From: an uncultured Clostridia bacterium
Lineage (GTDB): Bacteria; Bacillota; Clostridia; Christensenellales; UBA1242
DNA: 64,000 bases
Direction: 5' to 3'
Assembly (NCBI GenBank): GCA_944349515.1
Contig: CALVNE010000004.1
Coordinates: 2,166 to 66,165, forward strand
The notes beneath the pieces were generated by a model. The model was given only the letters and a program-made list of their open reading frames with translations. It was not told the DNA's origin and did no database searches. The stretch's first letter is position 1; each line of letters starts with the position of its first letter. This document shows, piece after piece, positions 1,111 to 63,756 of the stretch. The position numbers were made by a program, and so were the translations under genes.

Positions 1111-1139
1111 TTGACAATTAACTTTTTTAATTTTATAAT
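1111..1139 (+). promoter_or_regulatory. consensus sigma-A-type promoter immediately upstream of the ATG at 1146 (leaderless candidate)
   Basis: TTGACA at 1111-1116, 17-nt spacer, TATAAT at 1134-1139. Only 6 nt (ATCCAT) lie before the ATG, with no Shine-Dalgarno. Confidence 0.5.
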
Positions 1140-1145
1140 ATCCAT

Positions 1146-1979
1146 ATGGAAGTTAAAGAAATGGAAATTGAAGAATTTGTCGAAGAAAAAGTGGATGTCG
1201 AAAGCGAAAACTTGAGGCAACTTATGGAAAAGGTGGAGCCTCTGGTGTCCTCTGTTTCGCTGGAATGGATTAAGGAGGAAACGCTGGTTTTAGTGGTGAG
1301 AACGAAGAGCGAATTCACCAAAATTCCCCTTCTTGGAAAGAGTATGGAAGGGTACGTCCTTCTTGCCACGTCCGCTTGCAAGCAGAGGTTTGTGGAAGGG
1401 GAGGATAAGGTGTTTGCTTCGCTTTTGAAATATCGCGATGAGGCAAAGCAGATTGCCGTCTTTTATGACGATACACCGCTACTTGAAAAGGCGACCTTTT
1501 TCGAGATTATGCAATATTTTGCCTCCAAAAAAATGAATTTTTTGCCACTTAAAAGGGGCTTTGTGATTAAAAGTGATTTTGTCGAAAACTTCGAGTCGCT
1601 TTTATCCACACCGCTTGACCACTTTGGGCATGACGACTTTTTTGTTGTGGATAGCGCAAAGGCGGTTGGGTATGCGTATCATGTTTTGAATAAGAGGATA
1701 AACAACTTTCACAAGTCGCAAGGGGTGGTTTTGTTTGGCGAAAACACCATTTTTATCGACGCCGACGTGCAGATTGAAAGCGGAGTTATAATCTATCCAA
1801 ACAACCAAATTTTGGGAAACTCGGTGCTTTGCAAGGGCGTGGTGCTTGGAAGCGGAAATGTGATTGACAACTCTATTATATTAGACGATGCCGAACTAAA
1901 TATGTGTTATCTTAAAAACAGCAAGGTGCCAGAGGGCAAGGTGTTAAATAACGAAAAACTAATTAGCGAAACATTGTAG
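1146..1979 (+). CDS. GlmU-like protein (nucleotidyltransferase-like N-domain plus hexapeptide beta-helix), short and with degenerate signature
   Basis: 277 aa. Its position upstream of pth-mfd matches the glmU-(prs)-pth-mfd neighbourhood of Bacillota. The C-terminus has hexapeptide-like repeats (IDADVQIESGVIIYPNNQILGNSVLCKGVVLGSGNVIDNSII). Where GlmU has LAAGxGTRM, this protein reads VVRTKSEF. Confidence 0.45.
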   Translation: MEVKEMEIEEFVEEKVDVESENLRQLMEKVEPLVSSVSLEWIKEETLVLVVRTKSEFTKIPLLGKSMEGYVLLATSACKQRFVEGEDKVFASLLKYRDEAKQIAVFYDDTPLLEKATFFEIMQYFASKKMNFLPLKRGFVIKSDFVENFESLLSTPLDHFGHDDFFVVDSAKAVGYAYHVLNKRINNFHKSQGVVLFGENTIFIDADVQIESGVIIYPNNQILGNSVLCKGVVLGSGNVIDNSIILDDAELNMCYLKNSKVPEGKVLNNEKLISETL

Positions 1980-1988
1980 GAGGGGAGT

Positions 1989-2492
1989 ATGAAGATTGTT
2001 GTTGGGCTTGGAAATTACGGACAGGAGCATGAGCACACCTATCACAACATCGGCTTTGATGTTGTGGACGCACTTGCTGAGCGCCTTGGCATTTCCTTTA
2101 CAAAGAAGATGTGTAAGGGGCTTGTTGCGGAAGGACGCTTAGGCAATGAAAAGTTACTTTTAGTTAAACCGCAAACATATGTCAATTTAAGCGGGTATTG
2201 CGTGAAAGAACTAAAAAGCAAGTTTAAAGACGCGCGCATTTTGGTGATTGCCGACGATATCGACCTTCCGAAGGGCAATTTTAGGTATAAGGAGCGCGGA
2301 AGCGGTGGTACGCACAACGGGCTGAGGAATATCGTGGAACAGGTGGGCGAGGACTTTGAAAGGATACGCGTCGGCATTGGGCGCGACATCTTTATGGACC
2401 TTGCCGACTATGTGCTTTCAAAGTATGATCGCGCGCTTTTTGAGCCGATAATAGAAAAGGTGGCAGACGAGGTGCTAAACAGACTTAAATGA
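1989..2492 (+). CDS. pth: peptidyl-tRNA hydrolase
   Basis: MKIVVGLGNYGQEHEHTYHNIGF... is a typical Pth N-terminus (GLGNxGxxYxxTRHNxGF pattern). SD is GGAGGGG. 167 aa, upstream of mfd. Confidence 0.9.
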   Translation: MKIVVGLGNYGQEHEHTYHNIGFDVVDALAERLGISFTKKMCKGLVAEGRLGNEKLLLVKPQTYVNLSGYCVKELKSKFKDARILVIADDIDLPKGNFRYKERGSGGTHNGLRNIVEQVGEDFERIRVGIGRDIFMDLADYVLSKYDRALFEPIIEKVADEVLNRLK

Positions 2493-5400
2493 ATTTTCAA
2501 GAGCGCATTTTAAAATATAACGAGATTGGTGGCTTGACCATTGGCGAAAAGTCCGTTTTACTTCTTTCTTTAAAACGGGCGGTTTATCTCTGTGGCGATT
2601 TCGTGACGGCAAGCAAGTTAAAGTTCGCCCTTTCTTCGCAAGGTAAAAAGGTGGAGATTGTGGCGTGCGGACGCGAGGTAGAGGACGAGCGCGACCCGAA
2701 CCTCTATCCTTTTTCTAAAGCGCTTTCAAATTTTTTTGGCGAGGAAATTGACTATTTAATTTTTTTGCCGTCGTCCATGACAACCAAGTTCGACGCCGAT
2801 TTTTTGAAGAAAAGTTTGCTTATTCATAAAGGCGAGGAATACGATTTTGCTGCTCTTTCTTCTACGCTAATCGAATTTGGCTATGAGCGGGTGGAGTACG
2901 TCAACATCGAGGGGCAATTTTCGGTGCGAGGAGATATAGTTGACCTCTTTCTTTTTGGCGATGACAGCCCATCGCGCCTTGAGTTTTTCGACGATGAGGT
3001 GGAGAGGATAATCCATTTCGACGCCTCCTCCATGAAAACGATAAAGGAACTTGACAGCATAAAAATCACTCCGCTTGTTTTAAAACTCGGCGAAAGTATT
3101 GTCACCGATATCTATGACACGGTGGTTTTTGACGAGCCTATTAAGATAGAAAATGAGTGCAAAATTTTAAAGGATAGCCGGCAAAATCTCTCATGGGCGG
3201 AAGAAAAAATGTTTGCTGATTTTGAAAAATTGACGCAAAAAAAGCATATAACTTTTGCCAACATCGGCGAGGAAAAATATGAGAACAAAACGATAGGACA
3301 GAAAAGTTACCTTACCGACTTTAACTCGCTTAAAAAGGACATTGTGCTTTATCAGCATGATAGCAATGCGGTTATCCTTTTTGCCGGGCGCTTTCACGAA
3401 CTTATGAAGGAATTTTTGGTGACGAACAAGATTGCCTTTAAGTCGCTTGAAGAGGTGAAGCGGGAGGAGCTTGAGGAAAAAAACGTCTATGTTTCAAGCA
3501 CGTATTACCCGTTTTCGTTCAGTTTTTTAAAAGAAAAAATTATCGCAATTGGCACCGACGATTTATATAAGCCAAAGCGCATCGAGTTTAAAAAGGGTAA
3601 GGAAAAGTTATCGTTTTTGCCTAAGGTAGGCGACTATGTTGTGCATTCCTTTTACGGCATTGGAATTTGCAAGGATATCGTTCGGCTGAAACTTTCCACT
3701 TTTGAAAAGGACTACTTTGTGCTAGAATACAAAAATGGCGCTCTTTTGTATCTCCCAACTGAACAGGCGAACGTCCTTTCGGCGTACATCGGCGGAGAAA
3801 ACCCCAAACTCAACGCGCTCGGCTCGCAAGAGTGGGTGCATTTAAAAAATAAGGTTAAAGAGAACCTTAAAGAGGTGGCGATAGAACTTGCAAAGATATA
3901 TAAACAGCGCGCTACAGTTAAGGGCTATAAATTCACGCGTGATGAGGAACTTGAAAGGGAGTTCGACGAGTTTTTTCCGTACGAACTGACCCCGGATCAG
4001 CAAGAGGCAATCTCGGACGTCGACAAGGATATGGAAAGCGACAAAATCATGGATAGGCTCATCTGTGGCGATGTCGGCTTTGGTAAGACAGAAGTGGCAT
4101 TCCGCGCGTGTTTTAAGGCGGTGTATAATTCTAAGCAAGTGGCATTTCTCTGCCCAACCACCATACTTTCCGAACAACATTTCCGCTCGGCAAGCGAGAG
4201 GTTTAAGCCTTTCGGCGTGAGGGTGGAAGTTTTAAACCGCTTTAAGTCGCAAAAAGAAACGAACGAAATTTTAGCAAAACTAAAAAATGGCGAAATAGAC
4301 ATACTCATTGGCACGCACAAATTGCTCGGCAAGGAGGTTGTGTTTAAGGATATCGGGCTTTTGGTACTCGATGAAGAACAGCGCTTTGGCGTTAAGGATA
4401 AGGAAAAAATCAAAAAATTGAAGGAGAACATCGACGTTTTAACCCTCTCAGCAACGCCAATTCCGCGCACCCTTCATATGTCGCTAAGTAGCATTCGCGA
4501 CATCAGCGTTATCGCCACTCCGCCTAAGGATAGGTTGCCCATTCAAACCTATGTCACCGATTATAGCGACCAACTTTTGGTGGATACTACCCGCCGAGAA
4601 CTTGCGCGCGGTGGGAAGGTGCTTATCCTTTTTAACCGTGTTATAGAGATATATAACTTCGCCTCGCACGTGAGAAGTCTTATTCCGGAAGGTAAGGTGG
4701 GCGTGGCGCACGGGCAGATGATGGAAAAGGAACTTGCGAGTATCATCAACGACTTATACGACAACAAATTCAACATCTTCATCTCCACCACACTCATTGA
4801 AAACGGCATCGACTTGCCGGCGCTTAACACCCTTTTTGTGCTGGATAGCGATAAACTTGGGCTAAGTCAACTCTACCAAATTCGCGGAAGAATTGGGCGT
4901 GGAGATAAACTCGCCTATGCCTATCTCACCTTCGACAGGGGCAAGTTTTTAACTGAGGACGCGTACAAGCGCTTAGACGCAATAACCGAATTTAGAGAAC
5001 TTGGAAGCGGTTTTAAAATTGCCATGCGCGACCTCGAAATTCGTGGCGCGGGCAACATCTTAGGCAAGGAACAGCACGGGCATATGCAAAAGATAGGCTA
5101 TGATATGTATCTTAAACTTCTCGACGAGGTGACGCGTTCGCTTAAAGGCGGTTTGGACGCTGAGACTAAGGAAATTAAAATTGAAATGCCTCTCGACGCG
5201 TATATTAGCGATTCCTACATTGAATCGCAAGAGGAACGAATTGTCTATTACGATAAGATAAGTCACATCTCCTCTAGTTTCGAAAAAGAGGAGGTTTTAA
5301 AGGAACTAGCCCTTTTAAGTGGCGACGTGCCGAAGGAAACAAAAAACCTTTGCGATATCGCGCTTCTTAAAAACTTGGCGCTTAACTTCAATGTTAAACT

Positions 5401-5614
5401 GATAAGGATTAACGGCAAAGAATGCCTTGTCTACTTCTATAAATCGGAGGAAATTATCGACAAAAGATTGTCGAAAATGAGTGAATATTATTCTTTCAGT
5501 TTAAAATTTGAAGAGTTACCTATTCTAAAACTGAATAGCGCGGAAAGTGTGGAAAATAAGATGAAAATTTTAATCGACCTGTTTTCAAAAGCGCTCTCTG
5601 AGAAAAAAGATTGA
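2489..5614 (+). CDS. mfd: transcription-repair coupling factor
   Basis: 1041 aa. Superfamily-2 helicase motifs are present: GDVGFGKTEVA, LLVLDEEQRFG, LSATPIPRTL. It has a CarD-like segment and an ATGA overlap with the pth stop. Confidence 0.93.
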   Translation: MNFQERILKYNEIGGLTIGEKSVLLLSLKRAVYLCGDFVTASKLKFALSSQGKKVEIVACGREVEDERDPNLYPFSKALSNFFGEEIDYLIFLPSSMTTKFDADFLKKSLLIHKGEEYDFAALSSTLIEFGYERVEYVNIEGQFSVRGDIVDLFLFGDDSPSRLEFFDDEVERIIHFDASSMKTIKELDSIKITPLVLKLGESIVTDIYDTVVFDEPIKIENECKILKDSRQNLSWAEEKMFADFEKLTQKKHITFANIGEEKYENKTIGQKSYLTDFNSLKKDIVLYQHDSNAVILFAGRFHELMKEFLVTNKIAFKSLEEVKREELEEKNVYVSSTYYPFSFSFLKEKIIAIGTDDLYKPKRIEFKKGKEKLSFLPKVGDYVVHSFYGIGICKDIVRLKLSTFEKDYFVLEYKNGALLYLPTEQANVLSAYIGGENPKLNALGSQEWVHLKNKVKENLKEVAIELAKIYKQRATVKGYKFTRDEELEREFDEFFPYELTPDQQEAISDVDKDMESDKIMDRLICGDVGFGKTEVAFRACFKAVYNSKQVAFLCPTTILSEQHFRSASERFKPFGVRVEVLNRFKSQKETNEILAKLKNGEIDILIGTHKLLGKEVVFKDIGLLVLDEEQRFGVKDKEKIKKLKENIDVLTLSATPIPRTLHMSLSSIRDISVIATPPKDRLPIQTYVTDYSDQLLVDTTRRELARGGKVLILFNRVIEIYNFASHVRSLIPEGKVGVAHGQMMEKELASIINDLYDNKFNIFISTTLIENGIDLPALNTLFVLDSDKLGLSQLYQIRGRIGRGDKLAYAYLTFDRGKFLTEDAYKRLDAITEFRELGSGFKIAMRDLEIRGAGNILGKEQHGHMQKIGYDMYLKLLDEVTRSLKGGLDAETKEIKIEMPLDAYISDSYIESQEERIVYYDKISHISSSFEKEEVLKELALLSGDVPKETKNLCDIALLKNLALNFNVKLIRINGKECLVYFYKSEEIIDKRLSKMSEYYSFSLKFEELPILKLNSAESVENKMKILIDLFSKALSEKKD

Positions 5615-7881: not shown

Positions 7882-7910
7882 TTGACAAGAGTTTCTTTTT
7901 TTGGTAAAAT
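7882..7910 (+). promoter_or_regulatory. sigma-A-type promoter with extended -10, 8 nt from the ATG at 7919 (leaderless candidate)
   Basis: TTGACA at 7882-7887, 17-nt spacer ending TGG, TAAAAT at 7905-7910. No SD before the ATG. Confidence 0.5.
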
Positions 7911-7918
7911 AAAATCGT

Positions 7919-9313
7919 ATGGACGAAAAAGAGGCGCAAGAAGTAGAAATTCGCGAAGATGTGGAAAAAAACGAAGAAAAGCCCGTGGAAGATAAGGGCA
8001 AGTTTTTGGCGCGCCTAAAAGAAAAAAGAGCAAAGAAAAAAGAAGAAAAAATTAAAGAATTTAAAAAGCAAGACGACGAAAAAAAGGAAGTTGTTGAGGA
8101 AAAACTTGAAGAAGTAAATAAAGAAGTTAAAAAGGTCAACACAAAAAAACAAAAAATAATCAACTTTTGCTTTCTTATCTTCAATATCGCGCTTGTTGTT
8201 GGCATTCTCCTTTGGAATTTGCTTGGCTCCGATGAAGGCTTCACTCCGCTTTCACAACTAGATATACATTGGGTATTTATGCTAGTTTATGTTCTCTTTA
8301 TCTTTTTGGCATTCATGTGCCACGTTTTTTGTGTGCACAGAATGATATACCGAAAAACCTTTAAGTCGCGTTGGATTTTGACATATAAGTCACAAGCAAT
8401 TTGCCGATATTATGACGATATCACGCCACTTGCTGCCGGTGGGCAGGCGTTTATGACCTCATATTTAATAAACCGTGATGTGCCGGCGTCAACCGCGCTT
8501 TCCATTCCACTTGCCAAACTTGTTTTTCAAGACATTGTTTGGGTGATTGTCTGCTTGGTCTGCCTTATTTGTGCAAGTTTTAATCCGGCGCTTCAAGGTT
8601 TTACTTTCATTTCGGTGACAAGTATTGTTGGTTTAGTTTTGTCGCTCGGCATGATTGCTGCAATTCTATTTTTGTCGCTTTCGAAGCACGGCAAAAAGGT
8701 GATAGAGTGGCTTTTAAAACTGCTAAATAAAATGCACCTTATCAAAAACTATGAAAAAAAATATCAAAGTATCATGAAAACGGTGGACGATTACCAAGCG
8801 ATAATGCGCGAATATAGCCGTTCGTTTTGGGATATTGTCTATCAAATGGTGCTGGTGGCCATGTCGAATATCATCACAAAATCTCTGCCGTTTTTCATAT
8901 ACTGCATCTTTAAGGGCTTTCCGGCAACCGGCGCGGGCGAACTTTACTCCACCTTTTTCATGGCGGCGGCGCTTATTGAACTATCGTCAAGTTTTATCCC
9001 CCTTCCGGGCGGTTCCGGCATGAACGAAATCACCTTCACGATCATTTTCAGCAATATCGGCGGGCTTGGCGGTGAGACCTTTTGGGCGCTGCTGCTTTGG
9101 AGATTTGCCACCTATTACTTCTACCTATTGCAAGGTATTGTCATCATCGTCTACGACACAGTATATGGAAACAAAAAATGGCAATGGACGAAAAAACGCT
9201 CGGCACTTCAAGAGGAAAGTCAGGCGTTTAAGGCAAAGCAGATTGAAATGTTTAGGTTAGAGAGGAGTAAGCGTCGCAAGCATGAGAAAACTGCAAAAAC
9301 CGTGCATAATTAG
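7919..9313 (+). CDS. integral membrane protein of the lysylphosphatidylglycerol-synthase-TM / flippase-like (UPF0104) type with a Lys/Glu-rich N-terminal extension
   Basis: 464 aa. About 85 N-terminal K/E-rich residues are followed by multiple TM helices. It has the motifs AAGGQAFMTSY and PLPGGSGMNEITF, typical of that family. Confidence 0.6.
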   Translation: MDEKEAQEVEIREDVEKNEEKPVEDKGKFLARLKEKRAKKKEEKIKEFKKQDDEKKEVVEEKLEEVNKEVKKVNTKKQKIINFCFLIFNIALVVGILLWNLLGSDEGFTPLSQLDIHWVFMLVYVLFIFLAFMCHVFCVHRMIYRKTFKSRWILTYKSQAICRYYDDITPLAAGGQAFMTSYLINRDVPASTALSIPLAKLVFQDIVWVIVCLVCLICASFNPALQGFTFISVTSIVGLVLSLGMIAAILFLSLSKHGKKVIEWLLKLLNKMHLIKNYEKKYQSIMKTVDDYQAIMREYSRSFWDIVYQMVLVAMSNIITKSLPFFIYCIFKGFPATGAGELYSTFFMAAALIELSSSFIPLPGGSGMNEITFTIIFSNIGGLGGETFWALLLWRFATYYFYLLQGIVIIVYDTVYGNKKWQWTKKRSALQEESQAFKAKQIEMFRLERSKRRKHEKTAKTVHN

Positions 9314-44439: not shown

Positions 44440-44448
44440 TGATATAAT
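44440..44448 (+). promoter_or_regulatory. extended -10 element (TGaTATAAT) 6 nt from the ATG at 44455 (leaderless candidate)
   Basis: TG at 44440-44441, TATAAT at 44443-44448. No SD. No good -35. Confidence 0.4.
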
Positions 44449-44454
44449 AAATAT

Positions 44455-45300
44455 ATGAAATTTTTTGACCTATTTAAGAAAAAAATCAAAATCGGCGTGG
44501 CTTTTGGTGGCGGTGGCGCTAAGGGCATGACTCACATCGGCGTGATGAAGGCGTTTGAAGAATACGGACTTGACTTTGACTATGTGGCAGGCACAAGTGT
44601 GGGCAGTATCATGGGTGCGGCTTATGCCTCAGGCATGAAATCAAGCGAAATTTTGAAGGTGGCAAAAAGCATGAAAACGAGCGACATTCGCACAAGCAAG
44701 GTGTTTTTTGTGCCGTCAAAAACGGAAGGCATTGAAAGCATGATGCGAGACACCTTCGGCGACATAAACATTGAGGACCTTAAAAAGCCCTTCTCTTGCG
44801 TTGCGGTCGATATGAAAAGCACTAAGGAACTTTGCATATCGCACGGCAATCTCGCCAAAGCGGTGGCAGGCAGTTGTTGTGTGCCGGGCATCTTTCAACC
44901 TGTTGTTTTTGGCGACTATCTCTTATGTGACGGCGGACTTCAAAACAATATTCCAGCGAACATTCCACGCTTTTTTGATTGTGACTATGTCATCGCGGTT
45001 GACTGTAACAGCACGCGCACCTACGGCACGGAAAGCGCTAAAACGCTCGACATCATCTCCTGCGCGCTTAGAATTCTTATGAAAAGTAACTCCATTAAAG
45101 GCTATCTCAACGCTGACCTCACCATTGCGTGCGACACTAAGCGCTACAAGGCGACCGAACTACAAGGCATAGACGAAATGGTGGAGATAGGTTATCGAAA
45201 CACGATTGATATGATGCCAGAGATTATGAAGATTTTTTCAGGCAAGTATCCGCGGGCGAAAAAGAAGGACTACGGTAAGGACGATATTTTGTTTATTTAA
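44455..45300 (+). CDS. patatin-like phospholipase
   Basis: Has the GGGGAKG oxyanion loop, the GTSVG nucleophile elbow and the CDGGL Asp motif. 281 aa. Confidence 0.85.
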   Translation: MKFFDLFKKKIKIGVAFGGGGAKGMTHIGVMKAFEEYGLDFDYVAGTSVGSIMGAAYASGMKSSEILKVAKSMKTSDIRTSKVFFVPSKTEGIESMMRDTFGDINIEDLKKPFSCVAVDMKSTKELCISHGNLAKAVAGSCCVPGIFQPVVFGDYLLCDGGLQNNIPANIPRFFDCDYVIAVDCNSTRTYGTESAKTLDIISCALRILMKSNSIKGYLNADLTIACDTKRYKATELQGIDEMVEIGYRNTIDMMPEIMKIFSGKYPRAKKKDYGKDDILFI

Positions 45301-46464: not shown

Positions 46465-46492
46465 TTGTTAAAAACAAATATTGTGCTAAAAT
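46465..46492 (+). promoter_or_regulatory. promoter with extended -10, 6 nt from the ATG at 46499 (leaderless candidate)
   Basis: TTGTTA at 46465-46470, 16-nt spacer ending TGC, TAAAAT at 46487-46492. Confidence 0.4.
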
Positions 46493-46498
46493 AACATC

Positions 46499-46972
46499 AT
46501 GACAGAGGTAGATTTCGATAAAATCGTCATTGTTTCCTTATATGAGAGATTTTCCACTCTTGTTGCAAAAGCCATTGCAAAAGATGTGAATATGCTTTTT
46601 TGTAGTACAAGAGAACTGCTTGCTTACGAGATTATGGATAGAAAACTTGTCGAGGAGCGCTGTTCGGTGGATTATCTTAAAAAACAGGAACTACGCGTCA
46701 TTAAAAACCTTGCCTCATATGAAAATGTCTGCATATCTATTTCGTATGAGCGCTTCTACGAAAACGCCTCGCTCTTTCAAAAGAACAGTTTAATTGTGTT
46801 TATCGACCTTCCAAAAACATATATTAAACAAAAGTCCAAAATTTCATATATCCGTTTTAACGAAAGGCGAGAAAATTTAATTAAAACCTCAACTTTGTCT
46901 TTAAAGGTGAGAAAGGTTGAAGTGGAAAGCGTAAAGATTAAAATTTTAAAACAACTTGGAGGAATTCTATGA
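46499..46972 (+). CDS. shikimate-kinase-like protein with degenerate P-loop (probable pseudoenzyme)
   Basis: 157 aa. Colinear by eye with AroK: KIVIVSLYERFSTLVAKAIAKDVNMLF against xIVLIGFMGxGKTTxGxxLAxxLGxxF, and LIVFIDLP against VIFLDL. The Walker A glycines and lysine are absent. ATGA overlap with tkt. Confidence 0.45.
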   Translation: MTEVDFDKIVIVSLYERFSTLVAKAIAKDVNMLFCSTRELLAYEIMDRKLVEERCSVDYLKKQELRVIKNLASYENVCISISYERFYENASLFQKNSLIVFIDLPKTYIKQKSKISYIRFNERRENLIKTSTLSLKVRKVEVESVKIKILKQLGGIL

Positions 46973-52407: not shown

Positions 52408-53127
52408 TCACTTTTTCTTCTTTTTGTTTTTCATAAAGAGTAGCGCCATGATTATTCCTATGCAGGCAATCGCAATCGTAACGGCGTAGATGATGAGTGG
52501 ATTGACGCCGTCAGGAGCAACCGTGTCGGTCAAAACATAGCCGTATTGCAGAGAGTTCTCTCTTTGGTAGGCGATAGGGGTAAACTCCAAATCTTTGTTG
52601 TAGCCTTCATAGAGATAGACACGCTCGCCTTTTTCGATTTCAATCTCGCTTTCAGTTATCGTTTCGCCGTTTAGAAGATATAGTTTTGTGTTAGAGTTAA
52701 TGGAGGCGTTGTAGGCGGGGTAGGTTTCAATATCACTTCCACCGAGTGCCACAAAGTCGGAAAAGATGTAGGCGGAAGGGAGTTGCTCTCCAGCGTAACC
52801 ATCCACCTTGTAAAAAATCATGCCATAACTATCCGCATATTCGGTGGGCGCGCCTTTTGTCAACTCTAAACTTAGCTCGTCTTTGTGAGCAATTCTCAGT
52901 GGCTCGCCGTTTTCGCCAACCACTTTTTGCGAAGTGAACGCAGGCGCTTCATAAAGATAGCAAAAGTTGGCAGTGCATATGTACACTTGTTCATTCTCGG
53001 CTTGCACACCACTTGCCGGCGCAAAAAAAACGCCCAGCAAAAGTACTGCCGACATCAAAAACATCAGCAAAAACTTGCCTATGATCCCTTCGCACTGAAA
53101 GAATGAAACCTCGCCAAACCTTTTCAT
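52408..53127 (-). CDS. membrane protein with two SH3b-like segments and a C-terminal TM plus poly-Lys tail
   Basis: 239 aa with an N-terminal signal/TM (FLLMFLMSAVLLLGVFFAPASG), a C-terminal TM (LIIYAVTIAIACIGIIMALLF) and KNKKKKK. The SH3b call is weak. Confidence 0.5.
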   Translation of the reverse strand: MKRFGEVSFFQCEGIIGKFLLMFLMSAVLLLGVFFAPASGVQAENEQVYICTANFCYLYEAPAFTSQKVVGENGEPLRIAHKDELSLELTKGAPTEYADSYGMIFYKVDGYAGEQLPSAYIFSDFVALGGSDIETYPAYNASINSNTKLYLLNGETITESEIEIEKGERVYLYEGYNKDLEFTPIAYQRENSLQYGYVLTDTVAPDGVNPLIIYAVTIAIACIGIIMALLFMKNKKKKK

Positions 53128-53133
53128 ACTCTA

Positions 53134-53162
53134 ATTATCCACCAAATAAAAACCCTTGTCAA
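53134..53162 (-). promoter_or_regulatory. consensus promoter 6 nt from the ATG at 53127 (leaderless candidate)
   Basis: On the minus strand: TTGACA (complement of 53157-53162), 17-nt spacer, GATAAT (complement of 53134-53139), then TAGAGT and the ATG. Confidence 0.5.
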
Positions 53163-53248
53163 GCAAAGTTTAGTTTTAGCACGAAAAAGATTTAAAATCA
53201 TTTTTTTGATTTTGTTATATAAAATATTTTTGTTTAATAAAATACAAT

Positions 53249-53464
53249 ATGAAATTTTTAACAATAAAAAAGGCACATTGTGCCATTCTTTTGGTTATTC
53301 TAGTTGCAATCTGTTTGATTGTCGGCGTTTGCTATGCGGCTAGGGCGACGAGTTCGCCGAAGGCACAATACACCATTGTGATTGACGCAGGGCATGGTGG
53401 AGTAGATGTCAAGTTAGGACAGTATATTTTAAATCCTAAAAGTCAATTCTTACATATTTTTTAG
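53249..53464 (+). pseudogene. 5' fragment of a cwlD-type N-acetylmuramoyl-L-alanine amidase gene
   Basis: The first 51 codons (MKFLTIKK...YTIVIDAGHGG) parallel the intact cwlD at 56261. Similarity ends at about 53401, and 20 unrelated codons follow before the stop. Confidence 0.7.
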
Positions 53465-53507: not shown

Positions 53508-54539
53508 TTATTGTAGCCAATCTCTTTCGGTAGTTTCTTCCCATATATCTTTTAAAAGTTTACCATCAATTTTAGCATTGTTTATAAAATCTTCCTTTGT
53601 TTTGAATGTTTGCAAATGCCCACCATTAAAATCATTCATTTTAATGATTTCTTTGTTTTCATCGGATGTGAGAATTAGCTCGTAGTATATATTTTTGTAT
53701 TTAAATTGAACTTCGCTATACACATATAATGCTTCGATAAAATCTTCTAGGTCAGGTTCAAAAGGCTTATATTCACTGTATAATTTTTTCGCTTTGTTTA
53801 GTGAGATAAGATTTGGGTAGATAACTCTGTTTTTAAATTTATTTGCAAATTTATCAAATTTCCAACCGCAGTTTTCGCACTCGCCGTTTCCGAATTGGTC
53901 TTTTAGACATTTATTTCCGCAAACAGGGCACTTTATTTTGTATTTTCTTTTGAAAGTGCTATCTTTTCCGCAAATTAGGCAAGCGCCATTATAAGTATCA
54001 ACCGTTATATAGTGTCCGCAGTCGCATTTGTAATTTGCCATTGAAAAACTTTGAGATGGCTTTTCTGTTAGACTTTCTACTACATTAAAAATCTGTTCGA
54101 GATTATCAAAGTCCGCATAGATAATAAATTTTGTATCTTTTGATTTTTCGATGTTGTTTTTTGTTTCTTTTAAATCTTCAGAGTTATAAAGTTCTTGCTG
54201 ATAATTGTATCCATATATAAGATATTTGAGATTTGCAAAAACTTTCAAATTAAGCGATAAAAGTTCCCCTTTATTTGGGTAGAGTTTTATGTAACCAATA
54301 TAGTTTTTGTTCGTATAGACATCAAAAAAAGTTTCAGTTTTTATTCCTTTCTGTTTGAAGCGGATAATAGGAATCGGATATAATTCATTTGTAAATTGCC
54401 CACCTATTTTTATTCTATGCCCATAATGAAAATCTAACGCATGGTCGACACAATTTTTGCTAAGAAATTTTGACATTTTTTCCATTTTTTCAAATGCAGA
54501 TGCATAAATTTTGTTTAAATTTTTAACAGTTTTTCTCAT
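53508..54539 (-). CDS. hypothetical protein with central zinc ribbons including a CPCC-type Cys-rich domain
   Basis: 343 aa. Contains YKCDCGH...CLICG and KCPVCGNKCL...GECENCGWKFD...ISLNKAKKLY. The region is AT-rich. Confidence 0.6.
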   Translation of the reverse strand: MRKTVKNLNKIYASAFEKMEKMSKFLSKNCVDHALDFHYGHRIKIGGQFTNELYPIPIIRFKQKGIKTETFFDVYTNKNYIGYIKLYPNKGELLSLNLKVFANLKYLIYGYNYQQELYNSEDLKETKNNIEKSKDTKFIIYADFDNLEQIFNVVESLTEKPSQSFSMANYKCDCGHYITVDTYNGACLICGKDSTFKRKYKIKCPVCGNKCLKDQFGNGECENCGWKFDKFANKFKNRVIYPNLISLNKAKKLYSEYKPFEPDLEDFIEALYVYSEVQFKYKNIYYELILTSDENKEIIKMNDFNGGHLQTFKTKEDFINNAKIDGKLLKDIWEETTERDWLQ

Positions 54540-54546
54540 GTTTTTG

Positions 54547-54555
54547 ATTATATCA
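54547..54555 (-). promoter_or_regulatory. extended -10 (TGaTATAAT on the minus strand) 7 nt from the ATG at 54539 (leaderless candidate)
   Basis: The complement of 54547-54555 reads TGATATAAT, followed by CAAAAAC and the ATG. Confidence 0.4.
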
Positions 54556-54640: not shown

Positions 54641-54797
54641 TTAACTACGTCATTCTTTGAAATTTATGTCATATAAACTTGAATTTGCAAAAAATGTGAC
54701 TTAATATATTTCTATAAAAGTTTGTGAGAAGATTCTTTACAAACTTTTTTGTTAAAAGTCGAAAATTTTTATTAAAATAAGGAGAAAAGATGATATA

Positions 54798-55139
54798 ATG
54801 GAAAAAGGACCGAGTGAATACGCTGATAATTGGACATCACCTGAAAATGAAGTAGAACACTTTAAGCATGCAAAAGAATTTAATTTAAATCCATATGATT
54901 ATTCCGAAAGTGCGAAAAGATTTAAGGAAAATGAAGATGAAGATAATTTAATTTTTAAAACAGAGGATGGTACTACTTACAAATATAATGAAAAAACAAA
55001 AGAATTCATTATTATATCAAAAAACGGAAAAATTGTTACATACTTTAGAACGAGTTTAAGATATTTTTTGAAATTATTTAATGATTTAAATGGGAAATGG
55101 ATACAAGGAGGGAAATATGAGTTTATCCAACAAGAATAA
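54798..55139 (+). CDS. hypothetical small acidic protein
   Basis: 113 aa. AAGGAG lies upstream, and a 2-codon mini-ORF (ATG ATA TAA) overlaps the start. No family assigned. Confidence 0.5.
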   Translation: MEKGPSEYADNWTSPENEVEHFKHAKEFNLNPYDYSESAKRFKENEDEDNLIFKTEDGTTYKYNEKTKEFIIISKNGKIVTYFRTSLRYFLKLFNDLNGKWIQGGKYEFIQQE

Positions 55140-56260: not shown

Positions 56261-56941
56261 ATGAAATTCTTAACAATAAAAAAGCGCACTATATTGTTTG
56301 TTTTGACTGCGGTTATTTTGCTCTTCTCGGTCATTGGAGCCTGCTTTGTCATCCAAGCATCTTCGCCAAAGGCATTATACACCATTGTGATTGACGCGGG
56401 GCATGGCGGGCGTGACGGCGGTGCAGTGGGCAGCACTGGGGTGACAGAGAGTGAACTAAATTTAGAGTTTAGTTTGGAATTGAAAGAATTGTGCGAGGAG
56501 TATGGTTTTAAAGTGGTGCTGACGCGCAAGGATATGAACGGGCTATATTCGCTTTTTGCCACCAACAAGAAGAAGAGCGAGATGAAAAAGCGCCAAGAGA
56601 TTATTGAAAAGGCAAAGCCAGACGTGGTGGTCAGCATACACATGAACAGTTTTTCGTCTTCATCCAGTGGGGCACAGTGCTTTTATGCGAGTGGTAATGA
56701 GGCTGGAGAAAAACTTGCAACAAGAGTGCAGCAGGCGTTGTCAACCGAGATTGAGCATACCGGCACAACTGCAAAGGTCGGCGATTTCTATGTGCTTAAT
56801 TGCACAGATTACGCCAGTGTTTTGGTGGAGTGCGGATTTCTTTCTAACCCAGAAGAAGAACAAAAACTTTGCGACGAAGAATATCAAACCAACTTTTGCC
56901 GAACGCTTTTATATGGCATATTGGATTATTTTGAGATGTGA
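56261..56941 (+). CDS. cwlD: N-acetylmuramoyl-L-alanine amidase, CwlD-like (germination-specific type)
   Basis: 226 aa with an N-terminal TM. Amidase_3 motifs are present: IDAGHGGRDGGAVG, SIHMNS and ECGFLSNPEE. Confidence 0.8.
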   Translation: MKFLTIKKRTILFVLTAVILLFSVIGACFVIQASSPKALYTIVIDAGHGGRDGGAVGSTGVTESELNLEFSLELKELCEEYGFKVVLTRKDMNGLYSLFATNKKKSEMKKRQEIIEKAKPDVVVSIHMNSFSSSSSGAQCFYASGNEAGEKLATRVQQALSTEIEHTGTTAKVGDFYVLNCTDYASVLVECGFLSNPEEEQKLCDEEYQTNFCRTLLYGILDYFEM

Positions 56942-57274
56942 ACATATATGTAAAACTAAATCTTTAAAGGTGGCATTAAAGATTTGGCCTATATAAATAC
57001 GAAATAGATTATAAATGTAAAATTTGGCGTGAGTCTGTTTTTATTTTTAATTATAAACATTAGTAAGACGCATTTTTGTTTTGAAGATAATTCCAACACA
57101 AAATTAAATTGAAATAAAAAACGCAAAAAAATCATCAAAAAATCAACAAAATTGCGTAAAAAATTGAATTTTTTATATATTTTTATGCTTTTTCCTTTGT
57201 TTTGATTAAATTTATCAACTTTTCACACGAAGTTTAAAACGCATAAAAAGAACGCTTTTGCTTAAATTAAATGC

Positions 57275-57634
57275 ATGACTAAGAAGGAAAAGTTGGTCAT
57301 GTCATATTTATGCGAGAGATGTCAAAAGAAGAAAACTTATCTTATCTCTCCGCAAGAAATTACTTCTGCACTGTCGAAGAAGTATGTTTTATCTATTGAT
57401 GAAATTGATGAGATTATGGTAGGGCTTTCCAATGCCAACTTCATAGATTTTGTAATCTCAGACGGTAAGAAGGGGTATATGTACTGTGTGACATTAAAAA
57501 AGTGCGGGCAGACTTATCTTTCCGATGTTAAAAATCAAAGAAAGACGCTGGGTATCTTGGTGCTACGCTCTATTTTTCTTGCCACTGTCAGTTTTATCTT
57601 TGGTATCATTTTAAAGGCGATTTTTAAATCGTGA
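57275..57634 (+). CDS. membrane-tethered winged-helix-like protein (paralogue of 34561-34929)
   Basis: 119 aa. Has a wHTH-like N-domain and a C-terminal TM (ILVLRSIFLATVSFIFGIILKAIF). TGcTTAAAT lies 7 nt before the ATG, with no SD. Confidence 0.55.
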   Translation: MTKKEKLVMSYLCERCQKKKTYLISPQEITSALSKKYVLSIDEIDEIMVGLSNANFIDFVISDGKKGYMYCVTLKKCGQTYLSDVKNQRKTLGILVLRSIFLATVSFIFGIILKAIFKS

Positions 57635-57729: not shown

Positions 57730-57758
57730 TTGACAAATCCCCCCCCCCGTTTTATAAT
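57730..57758 (+). promoter_or_regulatory. consensus promoter whose 17-nt spacer contains a C10 homopolymer (candidate phase-variable promoter)
   Basis: TTGACA at 57730-57735. The spacer is AAT-CCCCCCCCCC-GTTT, with the C tract at 57739-57748. TATAAT at 57753-57758. SD AAGGAGG and the ATG at 57789 lie downstream. Confidence 0.65.
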
Positions 57759-57788: not shown

Positions 57789-58523
57789 ATGCAAAAAACA
57801 AAATCTAGAAAAATTTGGGCGGTGCTCGCTGTTTCTGTTATGCTTGTTGCATTCATGTTTTTAGCAACTGCCTGTGGTGGTTCAAAGACTGAAAGCGTTT
57901 CCACATATCAGGAACTCGTTGACGCACTTGCTGGAAACTGCGACATAGTTAAACTTGAAAACGACATCGTTGTTGAAGATGGCTTGGTTGTTACAAGAGA
58001 AGTTGTGCTTGACATGAATGGAAAAACTCTTTCTAACAATGAGGACATTTGGCATGAAGTACAGCCGGGAGAAGAGGGAGTTAGCACTCTTTCTATCATC
58101 GCTGTTGAAGAAGGTGGAGATTTGACCGTTAAAGGTAACGGAACAATTCGCGCAAAAGAGAATGACTGCTACGCGTTTGATGTTTCAGGTGGCGGACACC
58201 TTGTTATTGAAGACGGCACATATGTTGGAAATATAAGCGTTGTGTATGTGTTAGATGGTTCTGCTGAAATTGAAGGCGGAAGATATTCTATTCAACAACT
58301 CAATCCAACAAAAGACTATCAGTTCACATTAAATTTACAAGATGATTGTTACACCAATGGAACAGGAAGCATTGTTGTGACAGGCGGAACTTTTGAGAAT
58401 TTTGACCCATCAAAAAACGCCGCTGAAAGTGATGACCTTTCCACAAACTTTGTTAAAGAAGGATATATTTCAACTTTAACAATGGAAGGCGAGTTGACGA
58501 CATACGTTGTGACAGAGGTGTAA
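57789..58523 (+). CDS. surface lipoprotein with beta-helix-like domain
   Basis: The signal peptide ends in FLATAC. STYQELVDALAGNCDIVKLENDIVVE...LDMNGKTL resembles the module starters of the giant protein. 244 aa. Confidence 0.7.
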   Translation: MQKTKSRKIWAVLAVSVMLVAFMFLATACGGSKTESVSTYQELVDALAGNCDIVKLENDIVVEDGLVVTREVVLDMNGKTLSNNEDIWHEVQPGEEGVSTLSIIAVEEGGDLTVKGNGTIRAKENDCYAFDVSGGGHLVIEDGTYVGNISVVYVLDGSAEIEGGRYSIQQLNPTKDYQFTLNLQDDCYTNGTGSIVVTGGTFENFDPSKNAAESDDLSTNFVKEGYISTLTMEGELTTYVVTEV

Positions 58524-58597: not shown

Positions 58598-58626
58598 TTG
58601 TTGTTTATGATATTTTGTGATATAAT
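58598..58626 (+). promoter_or_regulatory. promoter with extended -10, 6 nt from the uvrB ATG (leaderless candidate)
   Basis: TTGTTG at 58598-58603, 17-nt spacer ending TGA, TATAAT at 58621-58626, ATG at 58633. Confidence 0.45.
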
Positions 58627-58632
58627 ATAAGT

Positions 58633-60618
58633 ATGAATAATGAAAGAAGTGAACATGATTTTGAACTTGTGAGTAAGTATAAACCTGCGGGTGACCAACC
58701 AAAGGCAATTGAAGAGTTGGTGGAAGGGTTAGAAGACGGGCTTAAAAGTCAAGTGCTTTTGGGTGTAACCGGCTCTGGTAAAACCTTCACTATGGCAAAC
58801 ATCATCGCAAAAGTCAACCGTCCGACGCTTGTGATTGCGCACAACAAGACGCTTGCGGCACAACTATGCAACGAGTTTCGTGAGTTTTTCCCAAACAACC
58901 GTGTGGAATATTTTGTTTCATATTACGACTATTATCAGCCGGAAGCCTACATCGTTTCGAGCAATACATACATCGAAAAAGATATGAGCGTCAATGACGA
59001 CATCGACAAACTTCGCTCTTCTGCGACTTCTTCGCTACTAGAGAGGCGAGATTGCATTGTTGTGGCGTCGGTTTCTTGCATTTACGGCTTGGGTATACCG
59101 GAAGAATATTTGAACCTTCACATTGCTTTGCGACCGGGTGACGAGTGCGATCGCGACAACCTCATCTCGCGACTTATCAATATTCAGTACACGCGCAACG
59201 ACATCGACTTCAAGCGCACGACCTTTCGTGTTAAGGGTGACACGGTGGATATCTTTCCGGCGAACCTTTCCGAGTCGGCGATTAAAGTGCGATTCTTTGG
59301 TGATGAGGTGGAGAAGATATATGAGTTTGAGCCTGTCAGCGGAAATTTGCTGCGCGAACTAAAATACGTGGCAATCTTCCCAGCGACGCACTATGCAGTT
59401 GGTAAAAACAGAATGGAAAACGCGCTTGTTGAAATCGAAAAGGATAGAGAAAAGGCGATTGAGGGCTTCACAAGGGAAGGCAAAGCGTTGGAGGCTGAGC
59501 GTATCGGACAGCGTGTAGCGTATGACCTTGAAATGATGCGCGAGGTGGGTTATTGCAGTGGCATCGAAAACTATTCGCGCTATTTTGATGGACGAAAACC
59601 AGGCGAGCCACCGTATACGCTTATCGACTATTTTCCGGATGACTTTTTAACAATCATTGACGAAAGCCACATGACCATTCCGCAGATACGCGCGATGTAT
59701 AACGGCGACCAAGCGCGAAAAAAATCGCTAGTCGATTATGGTTTTAGACTCGAGGCGGCGAAAGATAATAGACCGCTTAAATTCGACGAGTTTGAAAAAA
59801 GACTGAAACAGACAATCTTTGTTTCGGCAACGCCGGGGAAATACGAGCTTGAAAAGGCAGGGCAGGTTGTGGAGCAAGTCATCCGACCAACAGGCTTACT
59901 TGACCCGACCATTGAGGTGCGACCTATTAAAAATCAGGTGGACGAACTTATGGAAGAGTGCCGAAAGACGATTACACGCGGTGCGAGAGTTTTAGTTACC
60001 ACTTTAACTAAGAAAATGGCGGAAAGTTTGACAACATACTTAACCGACCACTCCTTTAAGGTGAAATATCTACACTCCGAAATCGACACCATGGAGCGTG
60101 TGGAAATAATAAACGGACTAAGGCAAGGCGAGTTTGATATACTTGTCGGCATCAATCTTTTGCGTGAAGGCTTGGATATGCCAGAGGTGGAACTTGTCTG
60201 CATTTTGGATGCGGATAAAGAGGGCTTCCTTAGAAGTGAAGGTGCGCTTATTCAAACGATTGGTAGGGTGGCGCGTAATGCTAATGGGCGTGTCATCATG
60301 TTTGCGGACACCATCACCGACAGTATGCGCCGGGCGATGGACGAAACTGCGCGCCGAAGAAAACTTCAAATGGAATATAACGAAAAGCATGGTATTGTGC
60401 CAAAGACGATTATCAAGGAAATTAAAAACACGCTTGAAATCGGCAAGAAAGTCACCGACCAGCACTTATCAAAACGCGACATACCGCTTGAAATTGACAG
60501 GCTAACATCGATGATGAAAATTGCCTCTTCTCAACTTGACTTTGAGCGCGCGATTGAATTAAGAAACAAAATTGTGCAACTTAAAAAGAGATTGAATAAG
60601 AAAGAAGAAATAGAGTGA
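58633..60618 (+). CDS. uvrB: excinuclease ABC subunit B
   Basis: 661 aa. Has [12 protein letters not shown], the DESH box, helicase motifs, and the C-terminal UVR domain ([13 protein letters not shown]). Confidence 0.95.
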
Positions 60619-60892
60619 AAAAACAAAAAATATCAAAAAAATGCGCAAAAATTCAATTTTTTCTTAAAAAATATGCAAAATTTTCGTGTTTTTTCTAATT
60701 TTTAAGTTTTTTTAAACATTTTTTATGATTGAAAGTTTACTGATGTTGATAAAAAATTTTTAAATCTTTGTATATAATTGGTATTGTTATTAGTTGTTAT
60801 ATTTTGAAATTTTATGGCGCTGACTGGTGCTAGTTTGGTGGTGTTTGAAATTTTAAAATCTAATATCAATTTTAAAAATAGCGTGGCGAGAC

Positions 60893-60921
60893 TTGTTTTC
60901 TTGTTAGATTTGTGGTATAAT
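60893..60921 (+). promoter_or_regulatory. promoter with extended -10, 9 nt from the uvrA ATG (leaderless or near-leaderless candidate)
   Basis: TTGTTT at 60893-60898, 17-nt spacer ending TGG, TATAAT at 60916-60921, ATG at 60931. Confidence 0.4.
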
Positions 60922-60930
60922 AATTAGGCT

Positions 60931-63756
60931 ATGAAAAATCAAATTGTAATTAAGGGCGCAAGGGAGAATAATTTAAAGAATGTCAACTTGACCTTGCCAA
61001 GAGATAAGTTTATTGTTTTTACAGGTGTGAGTGGCTCGGGGAAGAGTTCACTTGCGTTTGGCACGATTTTCGCCGAGGGGCAGAGAAAGTATATGGAAAG
61101 CCTTTCCTCATATGCGCGTATGTTCTTAGGTCAAAGTCAAAAGCCAGATGTCGACTCGATTGAGGGGCTTTCGCCGGCAATCTCCATCGACCAAAAGACA
61201 ACCAACCACAATCCGCGCTCCACGGTTGGAACGGTGACGGAGATATACGACTATTTTAGGCTACTTTTTGCAAACATCGGCACGCCGTATTGCCCGAACT
61301 GCCATAAGAAGATTGTGCCACAGACTATCGACCAAATTGTGGATAGCATTAAGGGGTATGGCGAAGGGACAAAGGTTTCTATTTTGGCTCCAGTTGTGCG
61401 CGGACAGAAGGGCACGCAGGCGAAACTTTTTGACAGTTTAAAAAAGAGCGGTTTTACGCGTGTGGAAGTTGATAATTTCACACACTTACTTGACGATGAG
61501 ATAAATCTTGACAAAAACTTGAAGCACAATGTGAGCGTCATCATCGACCGCATAGCGATAAAGGAAGGTAAGGACGCGCGCCTTGCGGGCAGTCTAGAAA
61601 CGGCGTTAAAACTCGCTGACGGACTTGTGATTGCAAAGACTGAAGAAAGGGAAGATTTGTATTCGATAAACTATGCCTGCCCAACTTGTGGCTGGACTCT
61701 TGGAGAACTTACTCCAAGATTATTCTCTTTCAACGCTCCTTATGGCGCTTGCCCAACCTGTTTAGGCTTAGGCTTCAATAGCGACATCGACGAGAATGCG
61801 GTGCTTAAAAACTCCAATCTTTCCATTAATCAAGGCGCTTTCAACCTCACTGGCTGGAAGAGCGAAGAGGGGAGTATGGCGCGAGCCTACTTTGAGGCGC
61901 TATCGCGAAAATATGATATTGATTTGGATACGCCTGTTCGCGATCTATCAAGAGATAAAATTGACATTCTTCTCTATGGAACCAAGGACGACACGATTGA
62001 ACTTGAAGTTTCAAACGATAGGAATAAGCGCTATCTCACCACCACTTTTGAGGGTATTGTAAACAATTTAAGAAGAAGATACAAGGAAACAAACAGCGAG
62101 TGGATTAAGTTTGAGATTGGCAGGTTTATGCGCGAACAGCCATGCGTCTCTTGTCATGGCAAAAGGTTAAACGAAAGTGCGCTGTCGGTTAAAATTGAAG
62201 GCAAGGATATTTACGATTTTTGCAACGAAAGCGTGAAAAACTTAATTCCAATGGTTAAAAATTTATCGTTAAGTAAGGCAAAAGCCGCCATTGCTGAACC
62301 GATTGTGAAAGAGATTTTGAACCGCTTGCAGTTTTTGGAAGATGTTGGGCTTAACTATTTGACATTATCGCGCTCGGCGGACACGCTCTCTGGCGGTGAG
62401 GCGCAGAGAATTAGGCTGGCAACGCAAATTGGCAGTGGCTTAGTCGGCGTGACATACATCTTGGACGAGCCGTCGATTGGATTACACCAACGCGACAATG
62501 AAAAACTCCTTAGAACGCTTAAAAATTTGAAAGATTTAGGAAACACCGTAATTGTGGTTGAGCATGATGAAGACACGATACGTGCGGCGGACTTTCTTGT
62601 GGACGTTGGACCGTACGCTGGCGTGCATGGCGGTGAAATTGTGGCGGCTGGGACTGTCAATGAAGTTATGAAGAACAAAAAGTCGGTCACGGCAAAATTT
62701 TTGCGTGGCGAAGATAAGATTGAAATTCCAACTTCGCGTAGGCAACCAAAGGACTTCATCACCATAAAGGGAGCAAAGGAAAACAACTTAAAGAATATCA
62801 CCGTTAAAATTCCAACTGGCGTGTTCACTGCGGTGACCGGCGTTTCTGGAAGCGGAAAGAGTTCGCTTATCAATCGAATATTGTTTCCATATCTATCTAA
62901 CCAACTTAATAACAGTAAACTTCCGCTTGGCAACTGCTCTAAGATTGAAAATGTGGAGGCAGTTGATAAGGTTATCTGCATTGACCAAGCGCCGATTGGC
63001 AGAACGCCACGAAGTAATCCTGCCACTTACACTGGTGTGTTCACGGCAATTAGAGAACTTTTCGCTTCCACTGTCGACGCTAAGACGAAAGGATATAGCG
63101 CAGGGCGATTCTCTTTCAATGTGAAGGGCGGAAGATGTGAGGCGTGCGAGGGCGCTGGCGTCAAAGAGATTGAGATGTATTTCTTGCCAGACATCACCGT
63201 GCCGTGCGAGGTTTGTAAGGGTAAGCGATATAACCGCGAAACTTTGGAAGTTAAGTATAAGGGCAAGTCGATAAGCGATGTGCTTGATATGACGGTTGAA
63301 GAAGCGCTCAAATTCTTTGAGAACATCCCATCCATTTTGAACAAAATTCAATCACTTTATGATGTTGGGCTTGGCTATATTAAGTTAGGACAGCCGGCAA
63401 CCGAACTTTCGGGCGGTGAGGCGCAAAGAGTGAAACTGGCAACAGAACTCAGTAAACGCGAGACGGGTAAGACGATGTATATCTTGGATGAGCCAACCAC
63501 AGGACTTCATGTTTACGACATCAAAAAGTTGGTGACGATTTTAAATAGGCTTATCGGCACCGGCAACTCGGTTGTTGTGATTGAGCATAACCTTGATGTT
63601 ATAAAGTGCGCCGACTATATCATCGACATGGGTCCAGAAGGCGGAGATGAGGGTGGCACGGTGGTGACCACAGGAACGCCTGAAGAGGTTGCCGAATGTC
63701 AAAAGAGTTACACAGGGCAATTCTTAAAGAAAATTTTAGAAGAAAACAAAAATTGA
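60931..63756 (+). CDS. uvrA: excinuclease ABC subunit A
   Basis: 941 aa. Has two ABC ATPase modules ([12 protein letters not shown] and [20 protein letters not shown] twice) and zinc-finger CxxC pairs. Confidence 0.95.

Follow-up and report, generated by a model that had tools for sequence, protein, structure and literature searches.

The stretch of DNA analysed here, 64,000 nucleotides (nt) long and called the window throughout, comes from an uncultured Clostridia bacterium (Christensenellales; UBA1242; assembly GCA_944349515.1, contig CALVNE010000004.1, positions 2,166 to 66,165 of the forward strand; the contig also forms part of ENA assembly ERZ28614028, sample SAMEA6814456), and it raises the question whether a part of its genes is transcribed into mRNAs that begin at the start codon itself. 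An initial annotation of the window had singled out ten genes in which a -10 promoter hexamer ends 5-9 nt before the ATG, leaving no room for a Shine-Dalgarno (SD) site, and all ten arrangements are present in the window sequence at the positions and spacings given there, including the cases in which a TTGACA lies exactly 17 nt upstream of the hexamer. We argue that promoters in this genome are probably placed so that a set of mRNAs starts on or next to the ATG, without leader or SD site, and we put the probability of this reading at roughly 85%. It is carried by the sequence geometry, its statistical excess, independent promoter features, correct N-termini and conservation among relatives, all of which were observed directly. 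Promoters of the sigma-70/SigA type, in many cases with a TG extension and in some with a consensus -35, would direct RNA polymerase to start on, or within 1-3 nt of, the A of the ATG. Transcripts made in this way would carry neither a 5' leader nor an SD site, and by analogy with leaderless mRNAs known from other organisms their 5'-terminal AUG would be bound directly by a ribosome that carries the initiator tRNA, through the 70S/IF2-dependent pathway. The remaining genes would be translated from a GGAGG-type SD site behind a short leader, with the -10 hexamer ending 15-35 nt before the start.

Genome-wide spacing between -10 hexamers and start codons

In the canonical promoter geometry the hexamer occupies positions -12 to -7, and a gap of 6 nt puts the +1 position on the A of the ATG. 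The host genome (G000; 1.49 Mb in 90 contigs, 40.7% GC) was scanned on both strands for every TAWAAT followed, at each gap, by a given triplet opening an open reading frame (ORF) of at least 80 codons, and, as the initial annotation had proposed, for the TG-extended form TGNTAWAAT, with an ORF cut-off of at least 60 codons; gaps of the same frame served as controls for a Poisson test. We observed 50 cases of TAWAAT-N6-ATG, whereas the same-frame gaps averaged 9.6 (p ~4e-20) and the remaining gaps up to 15 gave 5-19 cases each; the peak at gap 6 is one base wide. The TG-extended form occurred 27 times at gap 6 against about 2.2 at same-frame gaps (p ~2e-20), with 0-8 cases at other gaps. Genome-wide, no gap-6 peak was found for GTG, TTG, CTG, ATA, ATC or AAG, and ATG alone peaks; the preference for AUG that is expected of leaderless genes was thus seen, with GTG and TTG at background level. 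When hexamers with at least five of six matches were admitted, 72 ATG candidates were obtained at gap 6 as compared with 13-29 at gaps 4-10, and 44 of the 72 are the first start of their own ORF, usually 1-5 codons past an in-frame stop. No genome-wide excess was noticed at gaps 5, 8 and 9, and at gap 7 it was marginal at most (29 candidates against about 20). The gap range of 5-9 nt claimed at the outset thus stands at 6 nt, where the genome-wide peak is sharp, fails at 5, 8 and 9 nt, and is marginal at best at 7 nt; since the excess is confined to gap 6, the genome-wide phenomenon is strictly one of the ATG at +1.

It may be argued that TATAAT-like hexamers fall near ATGs by accident in AT-rich intergenic DNA, as the genome is 41% GC, a simple promoter scan over 20 kb returned 73 consensus-like sites against 48 in shuffles, and gaps 5, 8 and 9 are not enriched. 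But accident would not raise the -10 pattern about 5- to 12-fold above neighbouring spacings of the same intergenic DNA, for ATG only and at the sole spacing that puts +1 on its A. The window itself contains four copies of TGNTAWAAT-N6-ATG, where 100 dinucleotide shuffles lead one to expect 0.20 and never produced as many as 4, and in 146 other Clostridia genomes the same motif is hardly more frequent at gap 6 than at a control gap (ratio 1.1; see below). Chance is thereby refuted for the gap-6 class and possible for individual sites at other gaps; as an explanation of the pattern at large it is extremely improbable.

Promoter features and transcription units of the leaderless candidates

Sixty-six genes were called leaderless, 64 of which head a transcription unit. 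Two candidates proved to be false positives: rpsJ, which is SD-led and whose GGAGG overlaps the TAAAAT, and a 70-codon 'gene' whose ATG is internal to tsaE. Features that played no part in the selection were then found to be those of promoters: T is the base at -35 in 73% of sites and at -34 in 65%, 16 of the 66 sites match the -35 consensus at five or more of six positions (0-4 in shifted controls), 28 (42%) carry the TG extension, and a pyrimidine occupies -1 in 86% of leaderless sites against 62% of SD-led genes. These features bear on the possibility that the hexamers are not active promoters at all, transcription coming from upstream and the A/T-rich box acting as an SD-independent translation enhancer or in some other role. 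A/U-rich leaders do enhance translation in some bacteria; but such a box would need neither the invariant A2 and T6 of TAnAAT, nor a TG two bases upstream, nor a TTGACA 17 nt further up, its fixed 6-nt distance equals the geometry of RNA polymerase, and streptococci, in which leaderless starts have been mapped, give the same spacing index as this genome. We consider this possibility very unlikely.

Strong promoter-like sites fall into two groups by distance: 39 end 6 nt short of the start, those of the other group end 15-35 nt short of it, and hardly any are found in between, at 7-14 nt. Two initiation modes predict such a bimodal distribution. The automatic start choice used in this analysis favoured gap 6 by construction, and the empty zone at 7-14 nt is therefore more informative than the gap-6 peak. 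Taken with the single-base peak and the count of unit heads, the bimodal distances give the enrichment at operon-first genes that leaderless transcripts should display. The coexistence of two initiation modes, also proposed in the initial annotation, is confirmed: the 3' end of the 16S rRNA has the usual CCTCC, an SD core of 4 nt or more precedes about 1025 of the 1178 genes in a simple home-made gene call (81% of the genome covered), and GGAGG-type SD sites were confirmed at pth, acpP, spoIIID, the giant gene of 6802 amino acids (aa), radC, whiA and the lipoprotein genes.

Start codons, gene content and extent of the proposed leaderless initiation

The peak could still mislead if the starts were mis-set, the true starts lying downstream behind an SD site and the ATG at +1 falling merely inside a short ordinary leader. 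The gene at 57275 has an in-frame ATG 8 codons downstream after AAGGA, and an SD site of at least 5 nt occurs within 30 codons downstream in 2 of 70 leaderless candidates; on the other side, 64 of the 70 have no strong SD site either up- or downstream, and selection for an in-frame ATG of a long ORF at +1 would be left unexplained. Furthermore, full-length NCBIfam models for Der, MnmE, YsxC and RsfS begin at residues 2-6 of the proteins read from leaderless starts (HflX at 18), and the N-termini of UvrB and UvrA align with those of their orthologues. We consider mis-set starts very unlikely as well. We judge the leaderless start codons to be right, because family profiles, orthologue alignments and public gene calls agree on them.

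The genes concerned are mostly housekeeping genes, among them uvrA, uvrB, addB, recD2, holB, a class A penicillin-binding protein gene, murA, truA, a tlyA-like gene, rsmD, der, mnmE, hflX, ysxC and rsfS, together with a Xer recombinase and an RluA-family synthase. We estimate that about 50-65 genes would use the leaderless mode, roughly 4% of genes and 8-17% of transcription units. The count of 64 among at most 809 unit-leading genes gives a share of at least 8%, and among strong gene-adjacent promoters the share is about 16-18%. Scaling from streptococci (see below) gives about 65 leaderless units, which agrees with the direct count of 50-66.

Several points weigh against leaderless initiation on this scale, or at particular sites. 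About 15-20 of the 66-72 leaderless calls, i.e. about a quarter, are expected to be background, and the gene calls and transcription-unit counts are home-made, which makes the unit percentages rough. Five of the ten sites listed in the window have gaps of 5, 7, 8 or 9 nt, for which there is no clear genome-wide excess, and at one of them, 57275, the hexamer is weak and the SD-like AAGGA precedes the in-frame ATG at 57299. Transcription-start positions and translation from a 5'-terminal AUG, and with them every functional step, are what we infer from sequence. The leaderless or near-leaderless status of the off-peak sites is individually plausible from the geometry of each and, for 7919 and 53249, from conservation in a relative.

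Conservation and switching among relatives

The index used for comparison between genomes (N6:N12) is the count of TGNTAWAAT-N6-ATG against that of TGNTAWAAT-N12-ATG. All 24 relatives from the same genus (0.7-1.3 Mb) contain the N6 arrangement, in 13-30 copies each as compared with 1-10 for N12, and with G000 added the counts sum to 526 against 126. Elsewhere in the order, 16 families were compared: four with small genomes are likewise enriched, the remaining ones are not. When the class was sampled evenly, the five genomes from the window's family gave 148:14 (ratio 10.6), whereas the 146 other Clostridia genomes gave 1725:1548, with a median ratio of 1.11; expressed as excess density, this is 17-38 per Mb in the window's family against at most 8.2 per Mb in the other sampled Clostridia. 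Genome size was rejected as an explanation, as other Clostridia of 1.2-1.5 Mb have about 8 per Mb at most against the 17-38 of the family. The leaderless trait thus appears to be shared throughout the window's family, a group of uncultured Clostridia with small genomes (0.7-1.5 Mb), and in its densest member the leaderless share may reach a quarter of units. By UvrB, the nearest named relatives are Ca. Onthoplasma and Christensenella sp. UBA1259 (67-69% identity).

One whole genus relative (G008, 0.93 Mb, 37% GC) was compared gene by gene through N-terminally aligned orthologues with a mean protein identity of 64%. It repeats the peak at gap 6 for ATG only (37 against about 8), and the exact gap-6 box is retained in 17 of 35 leaderless genes as compared with 6 of 493 others (odds ratio 77, p 9e-18); of the other leaderless-gene orthologues, about eight have the box at 5-9 nt and ten are SD-led. 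Together with the gap-6 enrichment and the unselected -35, TG and -1 pyrimidine marks, this conservation supports the leaderless reading first suggested for the window. At the same time individual genes appear to switch between the leaderless and the SD-led state within the family. For uvrB, the start codon is preceded at 6 nt by TATAAT or TAAAAT in G000 and in six relatives; another three have a box at 6-8 nt, and twelve relatives are SD-led. For uvrA, which has a 9-nt gap in G000, TATAAT-6-ATG is found in G002 and G010 and an SD site in most other relatives. The layouts at 7919 (8 nt) and 53249 (5 nt) are both kept in G008, and this lends both sites support although their spacing is off the peak.

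In this genome (G000:C1:144925-145929) and its relatives the homologue of ribosomal protein S1 forms an ORF of its own, of about 350 aa and with scores of 163-190 bits within the genus, while in most other families of the order S1 lies inside an ORF of 660-840 aa and scores 277-330 bits. Across the 16 other families a low S1 score tracks a high N6:N12 (Spearman -0.55, p 0.026, phylogeny uncorrected), and we treat the association of S1 with leaderless initiation as only a lead.

Comparison with known leaderless systems

According to the initial annotation, leaderless mRNAs do not count as common in Bacillota, a view that is now dated. About 9% of operons were found experimentally to be leaderless in Streptococcus pneumoniae D39, S. 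pyogenes (8.6%) and S. agalactiae (9%), with leaderless status conserved at 81% between the latter two (PMC6212727, PMC6431027), and as early as 2011 leaderless genes had been predicted in 56 of 209 Firmicutes genomes, the clusters being Lactococcus-Streptococcus, Oenococcus-Leuconostoc and Mycoplasma, and the signal TAtAAT with a TG peak (Zheng et al. 2011; PMC3160421). We calibrated the index on two streptococci, which are not the species with experimental mapping, and on other genomes: N6:N12 was 28:4 in Streptococcus oralis and 33:5 in S. pluranimalium, 21:22 in Bacillus subtilis, 11:11 in Bacillus sp., 26:21 in Clostridium malenominatum, 5:5 in Neomoorella, 7:2 in Christensenella sp. UBA1259, 26:4 in Ca. 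Onthoplasma and 30:4 in this genome. The streptococcal ratios of 7.0 and 6.6 thus compare closely with 7.5 here. Both systems belong to the same phylum, both have a TG-extended TATAAT-type -10 right before the ATG with SD-led genes alongside, and a class A penicillin-binding protein gene is leaderless in both (pbp2A in streptococci); by sequence measures the TG-extended TATAAT, a share of around a tenth of operons and conservation across species, which mark the streptococcal type, are all found here. They differ in that streptococci are Bacilli and the present genome belongs to Clostridia, in that the excess density is 12-15 per Mb there against the 17-38 per Mb of the window's family, and in that conservation of the exact spacing is lower here (49% against G008); moreover, the streptococcal cases were mapped and reporter-tested, while ours are predicted from sequence.

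The 'TA-led' genes of Zheng et al. and the 'group C' genomes of GeneMarkS-2 (Lomsadze et al. 2018; PMC6028130) likewise have a Pribnow box 6-8 nt before operon-first genes with SD sites on others. The Firmicutes clades named by Zheng et al. were Lactobacillales and Mycoplasma and not Clostridia. GeneMarkS-2 assigned 36 of 1064 Firmicutes to the leaderless group C, whose typical members (Actinobacteria, Deinococcus-Thermus) are predicted to have 25-50% leaderless transcripts behind a degenerate TAnnnT; the estimate for the present genome, about 8-17% behind a full TATAAT or extended -10, is below the typical range. In the same class, transcription-start maps (Capp-Switch) of solventogenic clostridia show that leaderless transcripts exist, but they make up only about 2-3% of transcripts (PMC9045289). 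A literature search returned no paper joining 'leaderless' with Christensenellales.

The leaderless mechanism itself is thus already known, including in Bacillota; the novelty lies in the lineage, in how strong the signal is among Clostridia and in how often genes switch between the leaderless and the SD-led state inside one genus. Leaderless initiation at or above the streptococcal level would then not be confined, among Bacillota, to Bacilli and Mollicutes. Tentatively, we suggest that the window's family of gut Clostridia with reduced genomes could be the Bacillota lineage with the heaviest leaderless use, perhaps 12-25% of units when calibrated on streptococci, with repeated switching of housekeeping genes, and that this expansion may accompany the shortened, diverged and unfused S1 homologue; we hold this extension to be somewhat more doubtful than credible. 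If it is true, the family would offer a natural setting in which to study what enables the translation machinery of a bacterium to accept, or even to prefer, mRNAs without leaders. Genes such as uvrB and uvrA, leaderless in some congeners and SD-led in others, offer natural pairs for the gain and loss of leaders. There is also a practical side, as gene finders trained on SD sites can misplace leaderless starts and these lineages of metagenome-assembled genomes (MAGs) are annotated automatically.

Individual sites in the window

Eleven sites in the window have a -10 box that ends so short of the start as to leave no room for an SD site, i.e. the ten listed and an eleventh, absent from the earlier list, at the minus-strand start 1053, which is one of the four strict matches to TGNTAWAAT-N6-ATG. 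The gap between hexamer and ATG is 6 nt at 1146, 44455, 46499, 58633 and 53127 (minus), 5 nt at 53249, 7 nt at 57275 and 54539 (minus), 8 nt at 7919 and 9 nt at 60931; an exact TTGACA 17 nt ahead of the -10 occurs at three sites (1146, 7919 and 53127 minus), and seven of the ten listed sites have TG two bases ahead of the hexamer.

At 1146 (1111-1148, plus strand) TTGACA (1111-1116) is followed after 17 nt by TATAAT (1134-1139) and after 6 nt by the ATG. The gene (1146-1979) codes for 277 aa with a Pfam Hexapep match below threshold (25.5 bits against a cut-off of 27 bits); an in-frame stop lies 5 codons upstream of its start, and its orthologue in G008 is SD-led. The start at 1053 (1051-1088, minus strand) has TGtTAAAAT with the -10 at 1060-1065, 6 nt before the ATG of a 366-aa gene that exits the window. 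The divergent 92-bp gap between the two genes (window 1051-1148) is filled by these two leaderless-type promoters standing back to back.

The start at 7919 (7882-7921, plus strand) has TTGACA (7882-7887), 17 nt, TGgTAAAAT (-10 at 7905-7910) and 8 nt before the ATG, with a predicted leader of 1-2 nt; the gene (7919-9313) encodes an MprF-like membrane protein (Pfam LPG_synthase_TM), and the layout TTGACA-17-TAAAAT-8-ATG is identical in its G008 orthologue. For this gene and that at 57275 our script had chosen downstream starts with weak SD sites, which were set aside because the N-termini of the orthologues are conserved from the first ATG. At 44455 (44440-44457, plus strand) TGaTATAAT (-10 at 44443-44448) stands 6 nt before the ATG of a patatin-like phospholipase gene (44455-45300; Pfam Patatin), and TATAAT-6-ATG is retained in G008. 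A similar arrangement, TGcTAAAAT (-10 at 46487-46492) with 6 nt, is seen at 46499 (46484-46501, plus strand), where the promoter lies inside the 42-nt gap behind the preceding gene; the protein (157 aa) has no family assigned, and its G008 orthologue retains TGaTAAAAT-6-ATG.

On the minus strand, the start at 53127 (53127-53162) has TTGACA (53157-53162), 17 nt, GATAAT (53134-53139) and 6 nt; the gene (52408-53127) encodes a protein of 239 aa, either membrane-bound or secreted, its ATG comes 1 codon after an in-frame stop, and the promoter arrangement is not retained in G008. Also on the minus strand, the start at 54539 (54539-54555) has TGaTATAAT (-10 at 54547-54552) and a 7-nt gap (CAAAAAC), in which C at -1 and A at +1 would place the transcript start on the ATG; the automatic choice here was a downstream start with a weak SD site. 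The gene (53508-54539) encodes a Cys-rich CPCC-domain protein that has no orthologue in G008.

At 53249 (53238-53464, plus strand) TAAAAT (53238-53243) is indeed present 5 nt before an ATG, as the initial annotation had claimed, but the 71-codon ORF that it opens is an amidase remnant rather than an ordinary gene. The same TAATAAAATACAAT-ATG layout stands ahead of an intact 230-aa gene in G008. In the remnant, residues 1-53 of a CwlD-like N-acetylmuramoyl-L-alanine amidase run into unrelated sequence. A full-length paralogue (56261-56941, 226 aa) shares 64% identity with the 230-aa protein of G008; the 5' parts of the two copies share only about 70% DNA identity. The intervening segment of about 2.8 kb, which looks like an inserted islet, carries the minus-strand CPCC-domain gene (54539-53508) together with three small genes on the plus strand that G008 lacks.

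The start at 57275 (57259-57277, plus strand) is the least certain in the window, as its TGcTTAAAT contains a hexamer matching at only four of six positions (57262-57267), with a gap of 7 nt. In G008 the N-terminus of the protein, MTKKEKLVMSYLC, is conserved right from the first ATG, and no matching -10 was found ahead of the orthologue.

The two excision-repair genes close the series. At uvrB (58633-60618; promoter and start 58618-58635, plus strand) TGaTATAAT (-10 at 58621-58626) is followed after 6 nt by the ATG; the reading frame is closed by a stop 4 codons upstream of it, and an independent public gene call agrees on the start. Matches to uvrB in two genus relatives (L097, G009:C46; L104, G012:C8) contain an in-frame stop each, one TAG and one TAA, and may be pseudogenes or assembly errors. 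At uvrA (60931-63756; 60913-60933, plus strand) TGgTATAAT (-10 at 60916-60921) is separated from the ATG by the 9 nt AATTAGGCT, a stop lies 1 codon upstream, and the public gene call again agrees. Its leader is predicted to be 2-3 nt long, too short for a functional SD site. An AATAAT-6-ATG flagged by our script as the uvrA promoter was set aside in favour of the perfect TGgTATAAT 9 nt upstream.

Other promoter-like elements

In an Erysipelotrichaceae MAG (RUG14670; G205) the string TGTTATAATTTAATAAAGGAGATG is repeated at positions 20-46 of several contigs, at many contig ends, and is probably the promoter and SD site of a multi-copy element that breaks the assembly. In the window, a perfect TTGACA-17-TATAAT with a run of ten C in its spacer lies at 57730-57758, and the SD-led lipoprotein gene at 57789 begins 30 nt further on. 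Finally, an ORF listed from the ATG at 54798 has an in-frame ATG 9 nt upstream, at 54789, which lies 5 nt past an AGGAG; 54789 is more likely to be the start, because the ATG at 54798 overlaps a TGaTATAAT-like box.

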